Origin: Candidatus Woesearchaeota archaeon
Lineage (GTDB): Archaea > Nanobdellota > Nanobdellia > SCGC-AAA011-G17 > JAGVZF01
Direction: 5' to 3'
DNA length: 15,425 nucleotides
NCBI GenBank assembly: GCA_964549185.1
Contig: CAZJUI010000004.1
Span: 54,637-70,061 of the forward strand
The notes beneath the pieces are model-generated. The model had not been told where the DNA came from. It saw nothing but the letters and a program-made list of their open reading frames with translations, and searched no databases. Positions 3,098 through 15,419 of the stretch are shown here, one piece after another. Each line of letters starts with the position of its first letter. The first letter of the stretch is position 1. A program made the translations under genes and the position numbers.

Positions 3098-3427
3098 ATG
3101 GAAAAACAAACTGTTGGGTTGGATGATTTATTGAAAACTAATTTCGAAGATGGAACTTTAGTAGAATATAAAAATGGATTTGGGTTTTCAGTTGAATGGG
3201 GTCGAGCTCATATCAGAAAAATGAAAATAGACGGTAAAAAACTTGAAATAGAAACAGATGGTGAAGCTCACTTGTATTTATCAGATATAAATCATATTCA
3301 TAGAGTTATAAGAGAGGGAGAGGTATTCTATTTGGATATTCCAATATTGTTTGGTTATGCTTTAGCTCCTAAGGGAGTAGAAATACCTAAGAAACCATCT
3401 TACGAGGGATTTATAAGAAGAAATTAA
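3098..3427 (+). CDS. hypothetical 109-aa protein translationally coupled to the thermosome gene
   Basis: The track ORF 3014..3427 overlaps the thermosome 3' end in another frame. The in-frame ATG at 3098 lies 1 nt after the thermosome TAA and is preceded by GGAG at 3090-3093. The product starts MEKQTVGLDDLLKTNFEDG. No recognisable family. Confidence 0.6.
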   Translation: MEKQTVGLDDLLKTNFEDGTLVEYKNGFGFSVEWGRAHIRKMKIDGKKLEIETDGEAHLYLSDINHIHRVIREGEVFYLDIPILFGYALAPKGVEIPKKPSYEGFIRRN

Positions 3428-3454
3428 AAAATAATACTTAAAATTCAAAGCTTG

Positions 3455-3461
3455 TTTTTTT
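3455..3461 (+). terminator. oligo-T tract (T7) after the thermosome operon
   Basis: GCTTGTTTTTTTA lies 28 nt after the stop at 3427. Archaeal terminators are typically oligo-T runs. Confidence 0.4.
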
Positions 3462-3463
3462 AT

Positions 3464-3757
3464 TCATATTACCCTATTTTTTTCGAGAAACTGTTTTATC
3501 TCACTTACCTTTCTCGGATTTAAAGAAATATGATTAGAAGAATCTTTTCCTGTTCTTTTTATTAGAATAATAACCCATTCATTTCTTATTAATTCTTTTA
3601 TTGTTTTTTCTACTTCTTTCCTTCCTTTATGTGTACTGCGATAATGCTCTGGAATTCCCTTAATTACAAAATTAAGAGGAGTGTGTTTTCCTCCCCAGAG
3701 ATTACCGCGAACCAATTTTTGAAGAATAAGTTTTTTCAAAATATTTATGTCTTCCAT
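3464..3757 (-). CDS. small basic protein, 97 aa, possible winged-helix DNA-binding fold
   Basis: The ORF starts MEDINILKKLILQKL. The segment EVEKTIKELIRNEWVIILIKRTGKDSSNHISLNP resembles a recognition helix plus beta-wing. It is divergent from the wHTH regulator gene. The functional call is weak. Confidence 0.5.
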   Translation of the reverse strand: MEDINILKKLILQKLVRGNLWGGKHTPLNFVIKGIPEHYRSTHKGRKEVEKTIKELIRNEWVIILIKRTGKDSSNHISLNPRKVSEIKQFLEKNRVI

Positions 3758-3802
3758 ATATAAATATAAAACAATAAAGTTAATAATAGTTTCTTTAACT
3801 TT

Positions 3803-3820
3803 TTATACATTGATGTATAA
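3803..3820. promoter_or_regulatory. perfect 8-2-8 palindrome, candidate operator
   Basis: TTATACAT-TG-ATGTATAA lies 5 nt upstream of the BRE/TATA of the regulator gene at 3860, within the divergent intergenic region. Confidence 0.45.
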
Positions 3821-3824
3821 TAAC

Positions 3825-3838
3825 GAAAGGTTTAAATA
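3825..3838 (+). promoter_or_regulatory. BRE/TATA promoter of the wHTH regulator gene
   Basis: GAAAGGTTTAAATA. TTTAAATA starts at 3831, exactly 29 nt before the ATG at 3860. Confidence 0.6.
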
Positions 3839-3859
3839 TTTACTTGTTTTATTAAAATT

Positions 3860-4189
3860 ATGAAAGAAGATTCAATATTTTTAGATCATGTTGGAGATAA
3901 TCCAAGAATGAGAATATTACAATACTTGATAGAAGGCAGAGATTTTGATTACACATTAACAGATATGCTCAATGCTAAAGTAAGTTGGGGTACTTTAAAT
4001 AGCATAGTACCAAAACTTCTAGAACTTGGATTATTGATAAAAACAAGAAAAATTGGAAGAGCAACTCTTTATAAGATTAATAAAAATAACATTGCTGTAA
4101 AGAAATTAATTGAATTGTATGATAATTTAATTCTACAGAAATTAGAAAACTTAGATAAAAATATGAAAAAGAAAGAAATTATAGCTTAA
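3860..4189 (+). CDS. winged helix-turn-helix transcriptional regulator (ArsR/TrmB-like), 109 aa
   Basis: NPRMRILQYLIEG...YTLTDMLNAKVSWGTLNSIVPKLLELGLLIKTRKIGRATLYKIN is a typical HTH plus wing (GRxxLYxIN) pattern. It is followed by a C-terminal coiled-coil-like tail. Confidence 0.75.
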   Translation: MKEDSIFLDHVGDNPRMRILQYLIEGRDFDYTLTDMLNAKVSWGTLNSIVPKLLELGLLIKTRKIGRATLYKINKNNIAVKKLIELYDNLILQKLENLDKNMKKKEIIA

Positions 4190-7433: not shown

Positions 7434-7454
7434 GACTTTTTCTTGCTAAAATTT

Positions 7455-8693
7455 ATGTTTAAATTTTTAAAAGATAAGTTAAAAGGAGCTATAGAGAAAT
7501 TTACTAAAAAAGTAGAAGAAGAAGTTCCTGAGAAAGAAGTAGAGATAGTTAAAGAGGAAATTAAAGAACAGGCTAAAGAAAAACCTAAGAAAGAGGAGAA
7601 GGTTAAAGTAAAAAAAGTTAAAGAGAAAAAGCCTAAAGAAGAAAAAATAGAAGAAAAAAAAGAAGAGAAAGAAGAACCAATCATTGAAGTTAAAGAAGAG
7701 ATTAAACCAACAACTGAAACAAAAGAAGAAAAAAAGAGCTTCTTTGATATCTTTAAGAAAAAGAAAGAGGAAGTTAAAGAAGAATCTAAATTAGAAGAAA
7801 AAAAAGAAGAGAAGAAAGGATTTTTTGAACAGGTTAAAGAAAAGATAACAACTAAAGTTATTAATGAAAAACAATTTGATGAGATGTTTTGGGATTTAGA
7901 GATGGCATTATTAGAGAATAATGTTGCTGTTGAGGTTATAGAAAAAATAAAAGAAGATTTAAAGAAAGACATTACAAATAAACCAATAAAGAGAAATGAG
8001 GTTGAGAAAGAGATTACTGAAAGTTTGAAGAAATCAATAGAAGATTTATTTAATGTAAGTCCTATCGATTTGTTAAAAGAAGTTAAAGAGAAAAAAGAAA
8101 AACCTTATATTATTGTATTTGTTGGAATTAACGGCTCGGGAAAAACTACCTCGATATCTAAAATAGCTCATTTTTTACAAAAGAATAATTTAAAAGTTGT
8201 TATGGCTGCTGCTGACACTTTTCGCGCGGCATCAATTGAACAATTAGAAGAACATGGAAAAAAATTAGGAATAAAAGTTATAAAACATGATTATGGAAGT
8301 GATCCTGCTGCTGTTGCTTTTGATGCAATAAAACATGCCAAGGCTAAAAATTTAGATGTTGTTTTGATAGATACAGCCGGAAGATTACATTCAAATACTA
8401 ATTTGGTTGATGAAATGAAGAAGATTGTGAGAGTAACACACCCTGATTTAAAAATATTTGTTGGGGAAAGTATAACTGGAAATGATGCTGTAACTCAATC
8501 AGAAGAATTCAATCAGGCAATTGGAATTGACGGCATTATTTTAACTAAGAGCGATGTAGATGAGAAAGGTGGCGCTATAATCTCTGTTTCTTATGTTACA
8601 CAAAGACCCATACTTTATTTGGGAATTGGGCAAGGTTATGACGACTTAAAAGAGTTTGATAAAGAAGAAATTGTTAAAAGCTTAGGTTTATAA
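7455..8693 (+). CDS. ftsY: signal recognition particle receptor FtsY
   Basis: 412 aa from the ATG at 7455 (MFKFLKDKLKGAIEKF). It has a lysine/glutamate-rich N-terminal A-domain followed by an NG domain. GTPase motifs are G1 GINGSGKTT (8124-8150), DTAGRLH and TKSDVD, and the C-terminus is GIGQGYDDLKEFD. Confidence 0.95.
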   Translation: MFKFLKDKLKGAIEKFTKKVEEEVPEKEVEIVKEEIKEQAKEKPKKEEKVKVKKVKEKKPKEEKIEEKKEEKEEPIIEVKEEIKPTTETKEEKKSFFDIFKKKKEEVKEESKLEEKKEEKKGFFEQVKEKITTKVINEKQFDEMFWDLEMALLENNVAVEVIEKIKEDLKKDITNKPIKRNEVEKEITESLKKSIEDLFNVSPIDLLKEVKEKKEKPYIIVFVGINGSGKTTSISKIAHFLQKNNLKVVMAAADTFRAASIEQLEEHGKKLGIKVIKHDYGSDPAAVAFDAIKHAKAKNLDVVLIDTAGRLHSNTNLVDEMKKIVRVTHPDLKIFVGESITGNDAVTQSEEFNQAIGIDGIILTKSDVDEKGGAIISVSYVTQRPILYLGIGQGYDDLKEFDKEEIVKSLGL

Positions 8694-8694
8694 A

Positions 8695-8712
8695 TAAGCA
8701 ATTTAAGCAATT
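8695..8712 (+). repeat. perfect 9-bp tandem duplication (TAAGCAATT x2) between the ftsY stop and the homing endonuclease gene
   Basis: Read directly: TAAGCAATT at 8695-8703 and again at 8704-8712. Confidence 0.8.
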
Positions 8713-8723
8713 TTATCATAAAC

Positions 8724-8728
8724 GGAGG
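8724..8728 (+). promoter_or_regulatory. Shine-Dalgarno site of the LAGLIDADG gene
   Basis: GGAGG with a 10-nt spacer to the ATG at 8739. This suggests co-transcription with ftsY. A weak T/A box, TTTTATCATAAA, at 8711 could also act as a promoter. Confidence 0.5.
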
Positions 8729-8738
8729 ATATAGTTAA

Positions 8739-9437
8739 ATGAAGGGGGAAAATCAATTTACCGTTAAAGAGCCTAATCTCGAGCCTTCAGAGGAATTATC
8801 TTATTTGCTTGGTGTACTAAAAGGTGATGGATGCATTTATAAAACCACAAATAAAGGTAATAGAGATAAAGCAGATTACCTTATACAATTAGGGGTAAAA
8901 GATTTAGATTTTGCAATAGCCTTCAATGACACTTTAGAGAAAATATTCTTTAGAAAAGCAACTATAATAACTATTAAAAATGGTTCAGGAAAATTATTTA
9001 GAGTAGCCTTAAGAGTAAAATTTTTTTATAAATGGTATAAAAATCAAAAATTCAGTGAGCTATGTAAGATTGTTGAAGAATATCCAAGTGGATTTATAAG
9101 AGGTTTTTTTGATAGCGAAGGATCTATAGGTATTGCTTCTAGACATAAAGAAAACCTTTACCTTTCAATACGTTTTGCTAATTCAAATATCCAGACTTTA
9201 ACTTTTATTAAGAAATTATTAAAGAATAATTTTAATATAGAGTCAACAATAAAGAAAAGAATTGTAAATGCACGCACTATAGATGGACGTTTATGCAATT
9301 TTACTAAACCTGTTTATGTATTAGGATTCTATAGGAAGGCTTATATAGAAACATTTTTTAACGAAATAGGTACTTCAATTAAAAGAAAAAGCATGGAGGC
9401 GATTATGAATGGTAGTGGGACATTGTATGAAATGTAA
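8739..9437 (+). CDS. free-standing double-motif LAGLIDADG homing endonuclease (I-DmoI-like architecture)
   Basis: 232 aa. Motif 1 is LSYLLGVLKGDGCIY (8796-8840) and motif 2 is SGFIRGFFDSEGSIG (9087-9131). This gives a catalytic Asp in motif 1 and Glu in motif 2. As I recall the I-DmoI sequence, it has the same arrangement, including the YLLG..GDG..Y....GNR and VYVL segments. There are no Hint/intein blocks and no flanking exteins. Confidence 0.9.
   Translation: MKGENQFTVKEPNLEPSEELSYLLGVLKGDGCIYKTTNKGNRDKADYLIQLGVKDLDFAIAFNDTLEKIFFRKATIITIKNGSGKLFRVALRVKFFYKWYKNQKFSELCKIVEEYPSGFIRGFFDSEGSIGIASRHKENLYLSIRFANSNIQTLTFIKKLLKNNFNIESTIKKRIVNARTIDGRLCNFTKPVYVLGFYRKAYIETFFNEIGTSIKRKSMEAIMNGSGTLYEM
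9395..9399 (+). promoter_or_regulatory. Shine-Dalgarno site of the zinc-ribbon ORF, embedded in the endonuclease gene
   Basis: GGAGG with a 9-nt spacer to the ATG at 9409. Confidence 0.5.
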
Positions 9438-9555
9438 GGTTCAAAGAGAAATGAAGAATGAAAAAGAAGTTGTTATGAAAAATGGAATGAAAGCTATGTC
9501 CGGTGTTTGTAGCAACTGTGGAACAAAAATGTTCAAAATCATAGGTAAGAAGTAA
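9409..9555 (+). CDS. 48-aa zinc-ribbon protein (CxxC...CxxC; resembles the DUF5679-type small proteins), not in the supplied ORF track
   Basis: My translation is MVVGHCMKCKVQREMKNEKEVVMKNGMKAMSGVCSNCGTKMFKIIGKK. It has two CxxC knuckles (CMKC and CSNC) and the tail CGTKMFKI. A GGAGG SD lies upstream. Its first 29 nt overlap the 3' end of the LAGLIDADG ORF in another frame. Confidence 0.7.
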   Translation: MVVGHCMKCKVQREMKNEKEVVMKNGMKAMSGVCSNCGTKMFKIIGKK

Positions 9556-9571
9556 TTCTTCTATTCTTTTA

Positions 9572-10123
9572 TTATTCATAACCCGGAATTAAGAATCTAG
9601 ATCTTCTTACAAACCAATCTTGTTTTAAAACAGCACTTCTAATCATATCATGATAACTTTCATTATGGAAATATTCTTGACGAAGTAAACCTTCTTGTTT
9701 AAAACCTATATTTTCAGTTATATGTTTCATTTTTGAATTTGTAACATAGAAGATTGCCCAAATTTTATTTAATTGTAAATCATTAAAAGCTATTTCTAAA
9801 ACACGATTAATAGATAAAGTTGCATAACCCTTATTTTGATGTTCTTTTTTTATTATTAATCCAAGTCTACCATTTCTAGCAGGCCAATAAATATTATTAA
9901 TTCCTACTTGACCGATATATTCATGCTTTTCATTTTCTATTGAAAAAACTTTATCTGTTTCTGAAGCTAATAATCTTTCTAAGAATTGTTTTTCTTCTTC
10001 TCTTGTGATATTATGATTAAAACTTGCTAAATTTTTAGTAACTTCAGGATCATTTATCCAGATCATTACATTATCTAAGTCATCTAAAGATAATTGTCTT
10101 AAGTGAATTTTACGTTCTTTCAT
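9572..10123 (-). CDS. GNAT family N-acetyltransferase (RimJ/RimL-like)
   Basis: 183 aa. LRQLSLDDLDNVMIWINDPEV is followed by the acetyl-CoA motif HQNKGYATLSINRVLEIAF, and the C-terminus is GFKQEGLLRQEYFHNESYHDMI, typical of the RimL-like subgroup. Confidence 0.85.
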   Translation of the reverse strand: MKERKIHLRQLSLDDLDNVMIWINDPEVTKNLASFNHNITREEEKQFLERLLASETDKVFSIENEKHEYIGQVGINNIYWPARNGRLGLIIKKEHQNKGYATLSINRVLEIAFNDLQLNKIWAIFYVTNSKMKHITENIGFKQEGLLRQEYFHNESYHDMIRSAVLKQDWFVRRSRFLIPGYE

Positions 10124-12323: not shown

Positions 12324-15300
12324 ATGGTAATGGATAAATTAAGCAGCAGTTTGAGAAACACATTAAAGAAGATAGCTGGAACTATGTTTGTTGATGAGAA
12401 ATTAATAGATGAGTTAATAAAAGACATACAAAGAGCACTTTTACAATCTGATGTTAATGTTCAATTGGTGTTTAATTTAAGCAAAGATATTAAGAAAAGG
12501 GCTTTAGAAGAAAAACCAACAAAAGGAATAAGTGCAAAAGAACATTTAATTAAAATTGTTTATGAAGAGTTAGTTAAATTTTTAGGTAAAGAACAAAAAG
12601 GAATTGAAATTAAAGATAAGAAGCCATTTAAGATCATGATGGTTGGACTTTTTGGGTCGGGAAAGTGCGTTCATAAAAATAGTAAAATTCCATTAAGTAA
12701 TGGAGAGATATTAACAGCTGAAAAAATATATGAGAGGTATAGTGATAAAGAGCTTATTATAGAAGACGGCTCAATAATTGACATAGAAAAAGAAGATTTG
12801 ACTGTTCCTTCTTTTAATCCCAAAACCCTAAAAATAGAAGAGAAGAAAGTGACAAAATTATGGAAGTTAAATGGAAAAGATTTACTTCAAGTATATTTAG
12901 ACAATGGCAATGATTTTAGTGTTAGAGTAACACCTGAACATCCTTTCTTTGCTTTAAGAAACAATGTTGTAAAAAGGATCCGAGCTGATGAATTGACAGA
13001 AGATGATGTAATCGCAGTTCCATTCAATTATGAAACTATAGGTAAAGAACAGAACTTATTTAAAGAACTTAAAGAACTAGATTTAGATATAAAGCATAAA
13101 ACTGATATCACCCCAATCAACATTAAAAAAGAGATTCTTCCGAGACTGAAATTTAATAGGAACTATTGCCAACTTACGGCCGATTTTAGATTAGGGATTA
13201 CACCAATATGTTTAGTTGATTCTATTAATACAGAAACAGTTGAAGTAAAAAAGAGATATTGTAAAAAATTTATAAAATTTCCAGTTAATGTTACTCAAGA
13301 CTTAGCTGAATTTATGGGATATGTAATTGGCGATGGGCATTTAGGAAAAGACTACGTTGAAATTACAAATGAAGATCCTGAAATAATACACAGAATTATT
13401 CAACTTTCCGAAAAACTTTTTGGACTAAGAATTTATATAAAAGAAGATAAAAGAACAAAAGCTACAAAACATTTAGTTATAAGCTCAAAGACATTGGTAG
13501 AAATTTTAAACAAGATATTTGAGATTCCAATAGGGAAGAAAGGAAAAAATCTTAGAATCCCAAAACAAATACAAAAGAGCGATAATATGGTCATTAAAGA
13601 ATTCTTAAGGGCTTATTTCGATTGTGATGCTTCCCCTGCAGATAATTCAAGAAATATAGAACTATGTTCTGAAAGTAAGGAGATAATAACTGATGCTAGC
13701 TATCTCTTAAATAGATTTGGAATAATATCTTCGATATCACGAAAAATAATTAATAATATCCCGTATTGGAGATTATATATCTCAGGTCGTTATGCTGAAA
13801 ATTATGCTAAAAAAATTGGCTTTATTGTAAAACACAAGAAAGAAAGAAGTGAGCAATATTCTTTAATAGGGACCATCCAGGGTTGTGGAGATCAAGATAT
13901 GATAGTTTTTGGCAATTCTTTAAAAGTTTTAAGGCAAAATTTAGGGTTTACCATTGGAGAGATACAGGAATATGTAAATAGTTATGGAATTTATGAAAGA
14001 ATAGGTGAAATATCTAGAGAAAGTTTATCAAAATTAATTGCATTATATTATTTGAAGAAAAAGGGAAATGTCCATGTGATTTTAGAACATTTGCAAAGCA
14101 AAAATTCACAATTAAGTAACGCCTTTATTAACGGTTTTAGTTCTTATCTAAAAAAAGAGAATTTTATAGCTGAGAATAATGGGCAATTATTGCTTACACA
14201 AAGGGCACTAGATTATTTAAATATAAGCATTAACAAGCAAGAACTATTAGAGCCATTTAGAAATATAGTGAGATCAGATGTGTGCTGGATTAAAATAAAA
14301 AAAATAGAAAACATTGGTAAAGTTGACTTTGTTTATGATTTAACAGTTGAAGATAATCATAGCTTTATTGCTGATGGAATTATTGTTCACAATACAACGA
14401 CTATAGGAAAACTTGCAAAATATTATTCAAAAAGAAATTATAAGGTAGCTGCTGTTGGATTAGATGTTCATAGACCTGCTGCGCCTGAGCAATTAGAGCA
14501 AGTTTGTAAACAAGTTAATGTGCCTGTTTTTATTGATAAAAAAGAGAAAAGTGCATTAAAAATTTATGAGAAATTTGAGAAAGAATATGGTAAATATGAT
14601 ATTTTAATAATAGATACAGCTGGAAGAGATGCTTTAAGCAAAGATTTAATTGAAGAAATTGAAAGTTTAAATAAGAAGATAAAACCAGATGAAAGATTAT
14701 TAGTTATAAGTGCTGATATTGGACAGGCTGCACAAAAACAAGCTGAGCAATTTCATCAAAGTGTAGATATTACAGGAGTTATTGCAACTAAGATGGATGG
14801 AACAGCTAAAGCTGGAGGGGCATTATCTGCTTGTAGTGTAACTAAAGCTCCTATAAAATTTATTGGTGTAGGTGAAAAAATAGATGATTTAGAAGCTTTT
14901 GATCCTGAAGGTTTTGTTTCAAGATTACTCGGAATGGGAGATTTAAAAGCTTTATTGGAAAAAGCTCAGGAAGCAATGGATGTTGAGACAGCTGAAGATT
15001 TAGGAAAGAAGTTTTTGAAAGGAGATTTTAATTTTCTTGATTTATATGAACAGATGCAAGCTATGAGAAAAATGGGACCATTAAGTAAAATAATGGAACT
15101 TGTTCCAGGAATGGGAAATATGAATATTCCTAAAGAAATGTTGCAAGTTCAGGATGATAAGTTAAAGAAATGGAAATTTATTATGCAGAGCATGACAAAA
15201 GAGGAATTAGAAGAACCAGATGAATTACTAGATAGAAGCAGAATAGACAGAATAGCTAAAGGTTCAGGAACAACAGGTCATGAAGTTAGAGAGTTGTTAA

Positions 15301-15419
15301 AACAATATAGACAAAGCAAGAAGGTTGTTAAGTTAATGAAGGGAATGGATGATGAGAAAGATATGAATAAGTTAATGAAGAAATTCCAGGGAAAAATGCC
15401 TAAGGGTTTTGGGATGTAG
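12324..15419 (+). CDS. srp54: signal recognition particle protein SRP54 precursor, interrupted by an in-frame intein
   Basis: 1031-aa ORF. The N domain starts MVMDKLSSSLRNTLKKIAG..FVDEKLIDELIKDIQRALLQSDVNV. The G1 motif is split as GLFGSGK / TTTIGKLA. After the insert come DTAGRD, TKMDGTAKAGGALS and GVGEKIDDLEAFDP, then the methionine-rich M domain (MQAMRKMGPLSKIMELVPGMGNM). The exteins sum to 455 aa. Confidence 0.95.
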   Translation: MVMDKLSSSLRNTLKKIAGTMFVDEKLIDELIKDIQRALLQSDVNVQLVFNLSKDIKKRALEEKPTKGISAKEHLIKIVYEELVKFLGKEQKGIEIKDKKPFKIMMVGLFGSGKCVHKNSKIPLSNGEILTAEKIYERYSDKELIIEDGSIIDIEKEDLTVPSFNPKTLKIEEKKVTKLWKLNGKDLLQVYLDNGNDFSVRVTPEHPFFALRNNVVKRIRADELTEDDVIAVPFNYETIGKEQNLFKELKELDLDIKHKTDITPINIKKEILPRLKFNRNYCQLTADFRLGITPICLVDSINTETVEVKKRYCKKFIKFPVNVTQDLAEFMGYVIGDGHLGKDYVEITNEDPEIIHRIIQLSEKLFGLRIYIKEDKRTKATKHLVISSKTLVEILNKIFEIPIGKKGKNLRIPKQIQKSDNMVIKEFLRAYFDCDASPADNSRNIELCSESKEIITDASYLLNRFGIISSISRKIINNIPYWRLYISGRYAENYAKKIGFIVKHKKERSEQYSLIGTIQGCGDQDMIVFGNSLKVLRQNLGFTIGEIQEYVNSYGIYERIGEISRESLSKLIALYYLKKKGNVHVILEHLQSKNSQLSNAFINGFSSYLKKENFIAENNGQLLLTQRALDYLNISINKQELLEPFRNIVRSDVCWIKIKKIENIGKVDFVYDLTVEDNHSFIADGIIVHNTTTIGKLAKYYSKRNYKVAAVGLDVHRPAAPEQLEQVCKQVNVPVFIDKKEKSALKIYEKFEKEYGKYDILIIDTAGRDALSKDLIEEIESLNKKIKPDERLLVISADIGQAAQKQAEQFHQSVDITGVIATKMDGTAKAGGALSACSVTKAPIKFIGVGEKIDDLEAFDPEGFVSRLLGMGDLKALLEKAQEAMDVETAEDLGKKFLKGDFNFLDLYEQMQAMRKMGPLSKIMELVPGMGNMNIPKEMLQVQDDKLKKWKFIMQSMTKEELEEPDELLDRSRIDRIAKGSGTTGHEVRELLKQYRQSKKVVKLMKGMDDEKDMNKLMKKFQGKMPKGFGM
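12666..14393 (+). mobile_element. 576-aa class-1 intein with LAGLIDADG homing endonuclease domain, inserted in the SRP54 P-loop
   Basis: Cys1 (TGC 12666-12668; CVHKNSKIPLSNG is block A) and block B VTPEHPFF (TPEH at 12930-12941). LAGLIDADG motifs are LAEFMGYVIGDGHL (13302-13343) and VIKEFLRAYFDCDASP (13590-13637). Block F is DFVYDLTVEDNHSFIADG, and block G IIVHN ends at 14393, followed by Thr +1 (ACA 14394-14396). Confidence 0.93.

Follow-up and report, generated by a model that had tools for sequence, protein, structure and literature searches.

How does a gene for a LAGLIDADG homing endonuclease come to stand on its own between two protein-coding genes of an archaeal chromosome, and what fixes its position there? 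The question arises from a 232-residue open reading frame (ORF) in a 15,425-nucleotide (nt) stretch of a Candidatus Woesearchaeota genome (GenBank assembly GCA_964549185.1, contig CAZJUI010000004.1, positions 54,637 to 70,061 of the forward strand), which as a whole is called the window here. The ORF follows ftsY, the gene for the signal recognition particle (SRP) receptor GTPase, and runs into the start of a small zinc-ribbon gene of the DUF5679 family. Archaeal LAGLIDADG enzymes are known from rRNA introns and inteins, and free-standing homing endonucleases with intron-less homing have been documented mostly among GIY-YIG and HNH enzymes of phages. We give a probability of roughly 0.63 to the reading that the ORF is a site-specific, selfish homing-endonuclease gene that uses intron-less homing into the DUF5679 leader. 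What is new here is a LAGLIDADG lineage tied to one chromosomal site, the DUF5679 leader, in uncultivated DPANN archaea.

The first-pass annotation, made from the letters alone, had described a free-standing I-DmoI-like gene with two LAGLIDADG motifs and an intact Asp plus Glu pair, starting 45 nt after ftsY behind a GGAGG Shine-Dalgarno sequence and overlapping a zinc-ribbon gene by 29 nt. Each of these coordinates was checked and is correct (Table 1). The Shine-Dalgarno sequence of the endonuclease lies at 8724-8728, 10 nt before its ATG, and the overlap covers 9409-9437, where the two genes are read in different frames. The gene is free-standing, as had been claimed, since it has its own start, Shine-Dalgarno sequence and stop between two complete genes. 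The Pfam scan found no Hint or intein splicing domain in the ORF, and the window holds no Rfam family at gathering thresholds and no tRNA detected by ARAGORN. As a result, an intron, tRNA or rRNA context for the ORF was rejected.

The protein matched PF14528 (LAGLIDADG_3) with 53.1 bits against a cutoff of 22.5 (E 4e-14). In the phmmer search against the PDB, 10 of 13 matches were I-DmoI structures or engineered variants (best 1e-4). A profile of five subfamily members retrieved nine I-DmoI sequences (about 6e-8 to 3e-6), followed by PI-PfuI (9.4e-6) and then an I-DmoI/I-CreI chimera. The AlphaFold2 model (predicted local distance difference test, pLDDT, 78; predicted template modelling score, pTM, 0.82) has helices at residues 18-29 and 116-125 with beta hairpins after each. 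When this model was compared with the PDB by Foldseek, the top 24 matches were all I-DmoI (E about 2e-8 to 4e-7, target template modelling (TM) score 0.61-0.69), and WhiA (rank 39, E 7e-5) and the bI3 maturase appeared far down the list. The Pfam, PDB profile and Foldseek results all agree with the I-DmoI-like call. The placement among LAGLIDADG proteins is a ranking by profile and fold, and both searches group the protein with nucleases, not with maturases or regulators as the first-pass annotation had considered.

The motifs align as YLLGVLKGDG (D30) against YLLGLIIGDG of I-DmoI, and as FIRGFFDSEG (E127) against FIKGLYVAEG. G29, D30 and the run D125-S126-E127-G128 are invariant in the subfamily alignment; D30 and E127, at the positions of the metal ligands, are unchanged in the five full-length relatives aligned and are kept in further members too. 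Enzymes of this kind cut a specific target of about 20 bp and leave 3' overhangs of 4 nt. By sequence and modelled fold, the ORF is an intact gene for a monomeric, two-domain, I-DmoI-like LAGLIDADG homing endonuclease with predicted nuclease activity. I-DmoI itself, from the 23S rRNA intron of Desulfurococcus mobilis (PDB 1b24, 2vs7), shares the monomeric two-domain fold, the size of about 200 residues and the residue-for-residue alignment of the motifs, with Asp in motif 1 and Glu in motif 2, and it ranks first both in the profile search (6e-8) and in the structure comparison (E 2e-8, with a target TM of up to 0.69). However, the two proteins are only 20-22% identical, and the window gene lies outside any intron or rRNA gene. 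At its N-terminus, the window protein is longer by about 17 residues, which include a conserved NQFT motif, and it has Ile130, not Lys, at the position of I-DmoI K120.

The position of the gene was then compared among its relatives. A word-indexed search of 5.8 billion proteins returned 20 matches with a small close group at 43-51% identity, and an exhaustive profile search added the close relatives P0021-P0024. Eleven close relatives were examined, at 41-63% identity, and identity between the lineages of the subfamily is 40-63%. The context count covers the window, P0002 (L102), P0003 (L007), P0004 (L001), P0005 (L103), P0006 (L003), P0007 (L104), P0009 (L106), L038, P0021 (L107) and P0023, and leaves out P0022 and P0024. 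In all 11 members, a DUF5679 gene of 48-52 codons follows immediately 3' of the endonuclease gene, in the same orientation. DUF5679 adjoins none of the 16 less closely related free-standing homologues examined (29-38% identity; L005, L006, L105 and L089-L101).

The flanking contexts of the 11 members are of at least five different kinds. The window order is ftsY, endonuclease, DUF5679 and a GNAT gene on the reverse strand. The other main order is a pilin-like gene of 138 codons, endonuclease, DUF5679 and BFN_dom, assigned to L001/L002 (P0004), L007 (P0003), L103 (P0005), L003/L004/L088 (P0006) and L038; the pilin-like gene is visible only in L001, L003/L004/L088 and L007, as the other contigs end first. 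In L102 (P0002), the pair is followed by a reverse-strand helicase gene, in L104 (P0007) by Peptidase_M23 and PemK genes (reverse), and in the P0023 contig by a 100-codon gene (reverse). L107 (P0021) has a divergent radical-SAM gene upstream of the pair, and L106 (P0009) carries a SET-domain ORF fused to half an endonuclease, followed by DUF5679. Only the downstream DUF5679 gene is constant; the upstream genes vary, and both flanks are conserved within the pilin-BFN context alone.

Accordingly, ftsY is incidental and not part of the element, whose anchor is the DUF5679 gene. Judged from these gene orders, the DUF5679 gene most likely carries the recognition site or adjoins it. Because the constant neighbour is DUF5679 and not ftsY, the 3' end of ftsY, which had been put forward for cleavage tests, is a poor candidate. 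The mobile-element interpretation of the first-pass annotation is therefore largely supported, with its site moved from ftsY to DUF5679. The same annotation had supposed expression by read-through from ftsY. In the window, ftsY does precede the gene; in L107, however, the upstream gene is divergent, so the endonuclease-DUF5679 pair must have its own promoter there, and read-through from ftsY is no general requirement.

Another free-standing lineage (L089/L097/L099, 29-37% identical to the window protein) has its own conserved flanks. L089 and L099 share an upstream gene of about 95 codons (DELQYSVP..KRLNY.ERYAVFFRSRR), while the L097 contig begins too near to show it, and the downstream gene of all three contains GRKS(A/V)D.G.HLKCHGLRISF. 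This suggests that other LAGLIDADG lineages are also locus-specific.

For the alleles that lack the endonuclease, we scanned one genome per GTDB species with a DUF5679 alignment, which gave 239 relatives. The best 80 of these were analysed. They come from DPANN archaea (Nanoarchaeota/Woesearchaeota, Aenigmatarchaeota, Micrarchaeota and Nanohaloarchaea), Elusimicrobia/Endomicrobia, bacteria of the candidate phyla radiation (CPR) and others, at 64-88% identity. The endonuclease was present at one of the 80 species-representative loci (L038) and absent from 79. The first-pass annotation had linked a resident, domesticated gene to the lack of such empty sites. The tblastn search found no remnants at E <= 1 in the 1.2 kb 5' of the 79 empty loci, with at least 700 nt of upstream sequence available for 75 of the 80 loci. 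Weak matches of P0013 in L083, L085 and L087 were discarded as spurious, as they fall inside an unrelated 198-codon gene; its neighbours resemble what we take, from their translations, to be the ribosomal protein L21e and RpoF genes. L038 is a 71-kb Nanoarchaeota contig that breaks off within the endonuclease gene, at 222 nt from DUF5679, and this assembly break could reflect strain-level heterogeneity in presence and absence.

Endonuclease-less alleles were also found in the synteny of the window, where the first-pass annotation had proposed to look for them. L075 has ftsY, 71 nt and DUF5679. L008 and L009 have the up250 gene, ftsY, an unrelated ORF of 90-92 codons and DUF5679, with no endonuclease; the ORF lies at 3609-3887 in L008 and 3608-3880 in L009 and has no Pfam match. 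L008 (Nanoarchaeota) and the window are 64% identical in ftsY and 88% in DUF5679. The window DUF5679 is 88% and 81% identical to the copies of the empty L008 and L009, and 58-65% identical to endonuclease-linked copies. It thus tracks its syntenic empty relatives, which indicates that the endonuclease, and not the pair, is the variable part in the window lineage.

Empty sites exist in the pilin context as well, where the pilin-like gene is followed by DUF5679 after 76 nt (L010) or 27 nt (L072). The BFN_dom of the empty locus L012 is 71-73% identical to those of the carriers L103 and L003, which are only 48-56% identical to those of the carriers L001 and L007. This grouping implies at least one loss or two gains of the endonuclease inside the pilin/BFN clade. 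L012 holds three small ORFs in the endonuclease slot (3326-3934), one of them a DUF2283 gene. The interval from the upstream gene to DUF5679 is variable in content.

The right edge of the insertion can be placed closely. An ATGGAGG or GAGGTG variant stands 7-13 nt before the DUF5679 ATG in occupied and empty alleles alike, and in occupied alleles the final sense codons of the endonuclease are made up of these Shine-Dalgarno bases (AAT ATG GAG GTT GAA TAA T ATG, ending in NMEVE and a stop). Since the Shine-Dalgarno sequence is common to both kinds of allele, the insertion ends just 5' of it. In eight of nine full-length relatives, the endonuclease stops 1-15 nt before the DUF5679 ATG. It overlaps the DUF5679 start by a few bases in L104/L106 and by 29 nt in the window. 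The two genes thus make up a compact unit. A programmed frameshift or read-through that would fuse the endonuclease to DUF5679 was considered and rejected: the two genes are in frame in L001, at +1 in L007 and L003, and overlapping in the window, and this variation between loci means that there is no conserved recoding signal.

The candidate recognition site would span the Shine-Dalgarno sequence, the start codon and the first DUF5679 codons. Among 42 empty archaeal alleles, the commonest DUF5679 start is ATGGTAGAAGG, mostly followed by AAGATG(C/T)ATGAAATG, and this start is uniform even at synonymous sites. Empty alleles in the pilin clade share 91% identity over the opening 30 nt of DUF5679, a value that no other 30-nt window reaches, whereas empty and occupied alleles of the clade are only 76% identical over the same 30 nt. 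Fixed synonymous differences between empty and occupied alleles were seen at +6 (GTA vs GTT/GCT) and +12 (GGA vs GGT/GGC). The synonymous conservation at the 5' end of DUF5679 could instead stem from translation initiation.

Decayed copies were found at several loci. In three assemblies (L003/L004/L088), the endonuclease is split by a frameshift: frame 0 ends in YYNILGK and a stop, and the remainder is intact in another frame up to PRKNMEVE and a stop. In L106, only the second endonuclease domain is left, fused in frame to the SET-domain ORF. L104 and L106 additionally share a 486-bp segment (215-700 and 642-1127, respectively), 99.4% identical, which comprises the second half of the endonuclease and DUF5679. 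The sequence on both sides of this segment is unrelated, and the contigs come from different samples. The segment matches what co-conversion of the neighbouring gene would be expected to leave. The DUF5679 of L104 is closest to that of the archaeal locus L030 (80%). L104 also has an in-frame TGA at 3-5, right at the beginning of the contig, in place of a Gly codon of P0002; of the two readings, a nonsense mutation is likelier than TGA recoding, and a single codon is concerned.

These alleles allow a mechanism to be proposed. A complete ORF in the leader would make DUF5679 the second cistron of a small operon with its translation signals untouched, and the insertion would be nearly neutral without a self-splicing intron or intein. 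The enzyme would break both strands of endonuclease-less alleles, in or beside the conserved DUF5679 start, and recombinational repair from a carrying allele would copy the gene in, which is intron-less homing. Carrying alleles would be shielded because their upstream half-site is disrupted, because their first DUF5679 codons differ synonymously, or for both reasons. The homing cycle, which is partly shown, would run from invasion through vertical persistence under purifying selection to decay and loss. The first-pass annotation had noted a resemblance to intron-less homing in the layout, and this resemblance holds.

The ratio of nonsynonymous to synonymous substitution rates (dN/dS) of the endonuclease is 0.15-0.35 over all pairs, and 0.24-0.35 for the window gene against every relative, comparisons in which dS is saturated. 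L001 and L007 are 63% identical in the endonuclease, 72% in the pilin and 67% in BFN_dom; for L103 and L003, the endonuclease stands at about 83% against 92%. Low dN/dS and flank-like divergence indicate that the gene has been kept functional, and inherited largely vertically, in the pilin/BFN clade. Recurrent homing is also compatible with this pattern. A role useful to the host may exist, given the purifying selection and the apparent vertical persistence in one clade.

Such a role is the core of an explanation that we judge quite unlikely, in which the ORF encodes a domesticated LAGLIDADG protein, either a regulator or sequence-specific DNA binder or else a nuclease that serves the host, which acts with DUF5679 or controls it in a true two-gene operon. 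The selection values, the divergence that follows the flanking genes in one clade, the host-matched composition, the invariable orientation and tight coupling in 11 of 11 members, and the DUF5679 Shine-Dalgarno sequence embedded in the endonuclease 3' end would all suit it, and WhiA and HO are precedents for LAGLIDADG co-option (PMC3384342). It is opposed by the 79 of 80 DUF5679 loci without the gene, by the frameshifted and half-deleted copies, and by the strict retention of both catalytic acidic residues. Additionally, the Pfam scan found no helix-turn-helix (HTH) or other regulatory add-on domain in the endonuclease, and the fold search placed WhiA at rank 39 (E 7e-5) against 2e-8 for I-DmoI.

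The C-terminus of the window copy bears on a further alternative. The window protein ends in SMEAIMNGSGTLYEM and a stop, where relatives end in NMEVE and a stop. The window reads GCG ATT ATG A ATG, in which ATT ATG A replaces the GAA TAA T of relatives, and the endonuclease frame stays open as far as a TAA within DUF5679. The ancestral stop has thus been lost, which produced the 29-nt overlap. The stop loss probably also accounts for the DUF5679 N-terminus of the window, MVVGH in place of the usual MVEGR. Residues 227-232 of the endonuclease have pLDDT below 50. The window gene might accordingly be a stranded relic, a once-mobile gene fixed in its lineage, with its targets gone, drifting to decay and neither homing nor useful. 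The lost stop, the tail of about 10 extra codons whose last six residues are predicted to be disordered, the host-like composition, the existence of decayed relatives and the altered look of the carrying alleles' own sites speak for a relic. We nevertheless consider it unlikely, as the ORF is of full length and retains every residue that is invariant in the subfamily, and its pairwise dN/dS is 0.24-0.35 and not about 1, though dS is saturated.

A second LAGLIDADG_3 domain lies 4 kb from the free-standing gene. The SRP54 gene (12324-15419) is split in its P-loop (GSGK|C...HN|TTT) by a 576-residue intein, at about 12666-14393, which holds this domain; the P-loop of the paralogue ftsY is uninterrupted (GSGKTT). 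Its presence in an ftsY paralogue is the point in favour of the ORF being a split-off piece of the SRP54 intein, an origin that we group with membership in an integrated virus, plasmid or transposon-type island. This group of explanations is close to refuted. Descent from the local intein endonuclease was rejected, as BLASTP gave E = 1.7 and no kinship beyond the motif. Core genes flank the ORF, and L008/L009 share their synteny. No viral relative was found among the 2.9 million IMG/VR contigs scanned with the subfamily alignment, and the PHROGs matches were to generic 'endonuclease' families only. The search for transposon ends or a target-site duplication around 8400-9800 found only chance-level repeats of 14-15 nt, direct or inverted. 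A foreign base composition was likewise rejected: the ORF has a G+C content of 26-28%, the same as its surroundings.

Against intron-less homing into the DUF5679 leader, several points have to be weighed. The pilin/BFN-clade divergence, which is like that of the flanks, and the dN/dS of 0.15-0.35 fit a vertically inherited useful gene equally well. The host-like G+C content gives no sign of recent arrival in the window genome, and the nearest empty relatives of the window share only 64% ftsY identity with it. The 'protective' synonymous differences rest on five carrying and four empty alleles, which are phylogenetically structured. The short metagenomic contigs L104 and L106 might be chimeric assemblies; even then, the shared segment would still exist in two genomes.

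The nearest functional parallel is that of the T-even phage SegF and other Seg/Mob enzymes. Intronless homing by free-standing phage endonucleases with localized marker exclusion has been summarised, and free-standing homing-endonuclease genes are documented mostly in bacteriophages (PMC13565253). As in those systems, the window gene is a stand-alone ORF between genes, beside a conserved gene and without a self-splicing element, with presence/absence polymorphism and possible co-transfer of a neighbouring segment (L104/L106). The phage enzymes, however, are of the GIY-YIG or HNH type and act between co-infecting genomes, whereas a LAGLIDADG enzyme is found here in DPANN chromosomes. The window lineage also always occupies the same position in the 5' leader of a gene, with the host Shine-Dalgarno sequence inside the ORF, and its surroundings are constant on the DUF5679 side only, unlike the conservation of both flanks expected of SegF-type genes.

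Intein-borne LAGLIDADG_3 enzymes (PI-PfuI, 1dq3, and the SRP54 intein) share PF14528 and a C-terminal motif of the IG(T/F)SIKRK type with the window protein, which differs in having no Hint or splicing domain and no significant similarity to the local intein. Hosts have co-opted LAGLIDADG folds, for example in WhiA/DUF199 and yeast HO (PMC3384342). Like these, the window gene is a free-standing chromosomal LAGLIDADG fold with a possible host function. In contrast to them, its lineage keeps both acidic residues and is sporadic, not universal, and the protein has neither the C-terminal HTH of WhiA nor the intein remnant or zinc-finger array of HO.

The first-pass annotation had called a free-standing copy atypical, which was overstated. 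The exhaustive profile search gave 2690 cluster representatives at E <= 1e-3 and 1069 at <= 1e-10, and among the best 150 representatives 149 are of free-standing size (150-410 residues), mostly with an N-terminal extension of about 55-65 residues. They have the same domain organisation and motifs as the window subfamily, which is without this extension.

A wider claim may be considered, namely that the lineage parks its ORF in the DUF5679 leader and spreads between DPANN lineages by intron-less homing, co-converting DUF5679 as it goes. We regard this as rather doubtful. If it were true, endonuclease-driven conversion could partly explain the uniformity of DUF5679 (64-88%) in DPANN archaea and several bacterial phyla, and the case would be the first documented intron-less homing outside phage co-infection. 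A new principle would follow only if homing in cellular chromosomes with DUF5679 co-conversion is true. With empty, occupied and decayed alleles all in hand, the locus offers a natural system for asking whether cellular chromosomes support intron-less homing, and by what means a self-splicing element might become dispensable. It also provides candidate target sequences for a new compact (about 220 residues) meganuclease scaffold related to I-DmoI, and it flags DUF5679 as a very conserved, unstudied small protein, given that homing endonucleases usually aim at sequence that is indispensable. Full-text literature searches found no paper on DUF5679 function or its endonuclease association, nor any that reports free-standing LAGLIDADG genes from DPANN archaea.

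Table 1. Features of the endonuclease locus, in window coordinates.
Feature	Position	Strand	Basis
ftsY (SRP receptor GTPase), upstream neighbour in the window lineage only	7443..8693	+	TIGR00064 4.9e-98, above curated cutoff; Pfam SRP54 1.6e-73
Spacer between ftsY and endonuclease, 45 nt	8694..8738	+	sequence
Free-standing LAGLIDADG homing-endonuclease gene, 232 aa, ATG start	8739..9437	+	LAGLIDADG_3 match; I-DmoI best by sequence and fold
LAGLIDADG motif 1, L20-Y34, LSYLLGVLKGDGCIY, catalytic Asp30	8796..8840	+	aligned to I-DmoI residues 12-26
LAGLIDADG motif 2, F119-G131, FIRGFFDSEGSIG, catalytic Glu127	9093..9131	+	aligned to I-DmoI FIKGLYVAEGD
GGAGG Shine-Dalgarno of DUF5679, within last endonuclease codons; right edge of insertion	9395..9399	+	ATGGAGG/GAGGTG comparison
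Candidate homing-site region, Shine-Dalgarno to first ~10 DUF5679 codons	9395..9440	.	hypothesis, sequence conservation
C-terminal read-through tail, last 11 codons + stop, ~10 codons beyond relatives	9405..9437	+	C-termini alignment
DUF5679 gene, 48 aa, C4 zinc ribbon	9409..9555	+	PF18930 9.9e-10, 38.8 bits vs cutoff 27

Some minor observations concern the neighbouring genes and signals. For a protein without an assigned function, DUF5679 is unusually well conserved (64-88% identity) over DPANN archaea, Elusimicrobia/Endomicrobia, CPR and other bacteria; in some copies, the first knuckle is without its second Cys (CMKEK in L011, L076 and L104). The ftsY ORF begins mechanically at the TTG at 7443; the relatives in L008 and L009 begin with MFKFLKEKLKG and MFNFLKDKLKG, and by this comparison the true start is probably the ATG at 7455. 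Upstream of the endonuclease, the window has an AT-rich TTTTATC at 8711-8717, 22-28 nt before the ATG, and TTTTATT is also found about 22-31 nt 5' of the endonuclease start in L001, L007 and L107. This TTTTAT(T/C) element could be an archaeal TATA box, a weak candidate in a genome of about 26% G+C.

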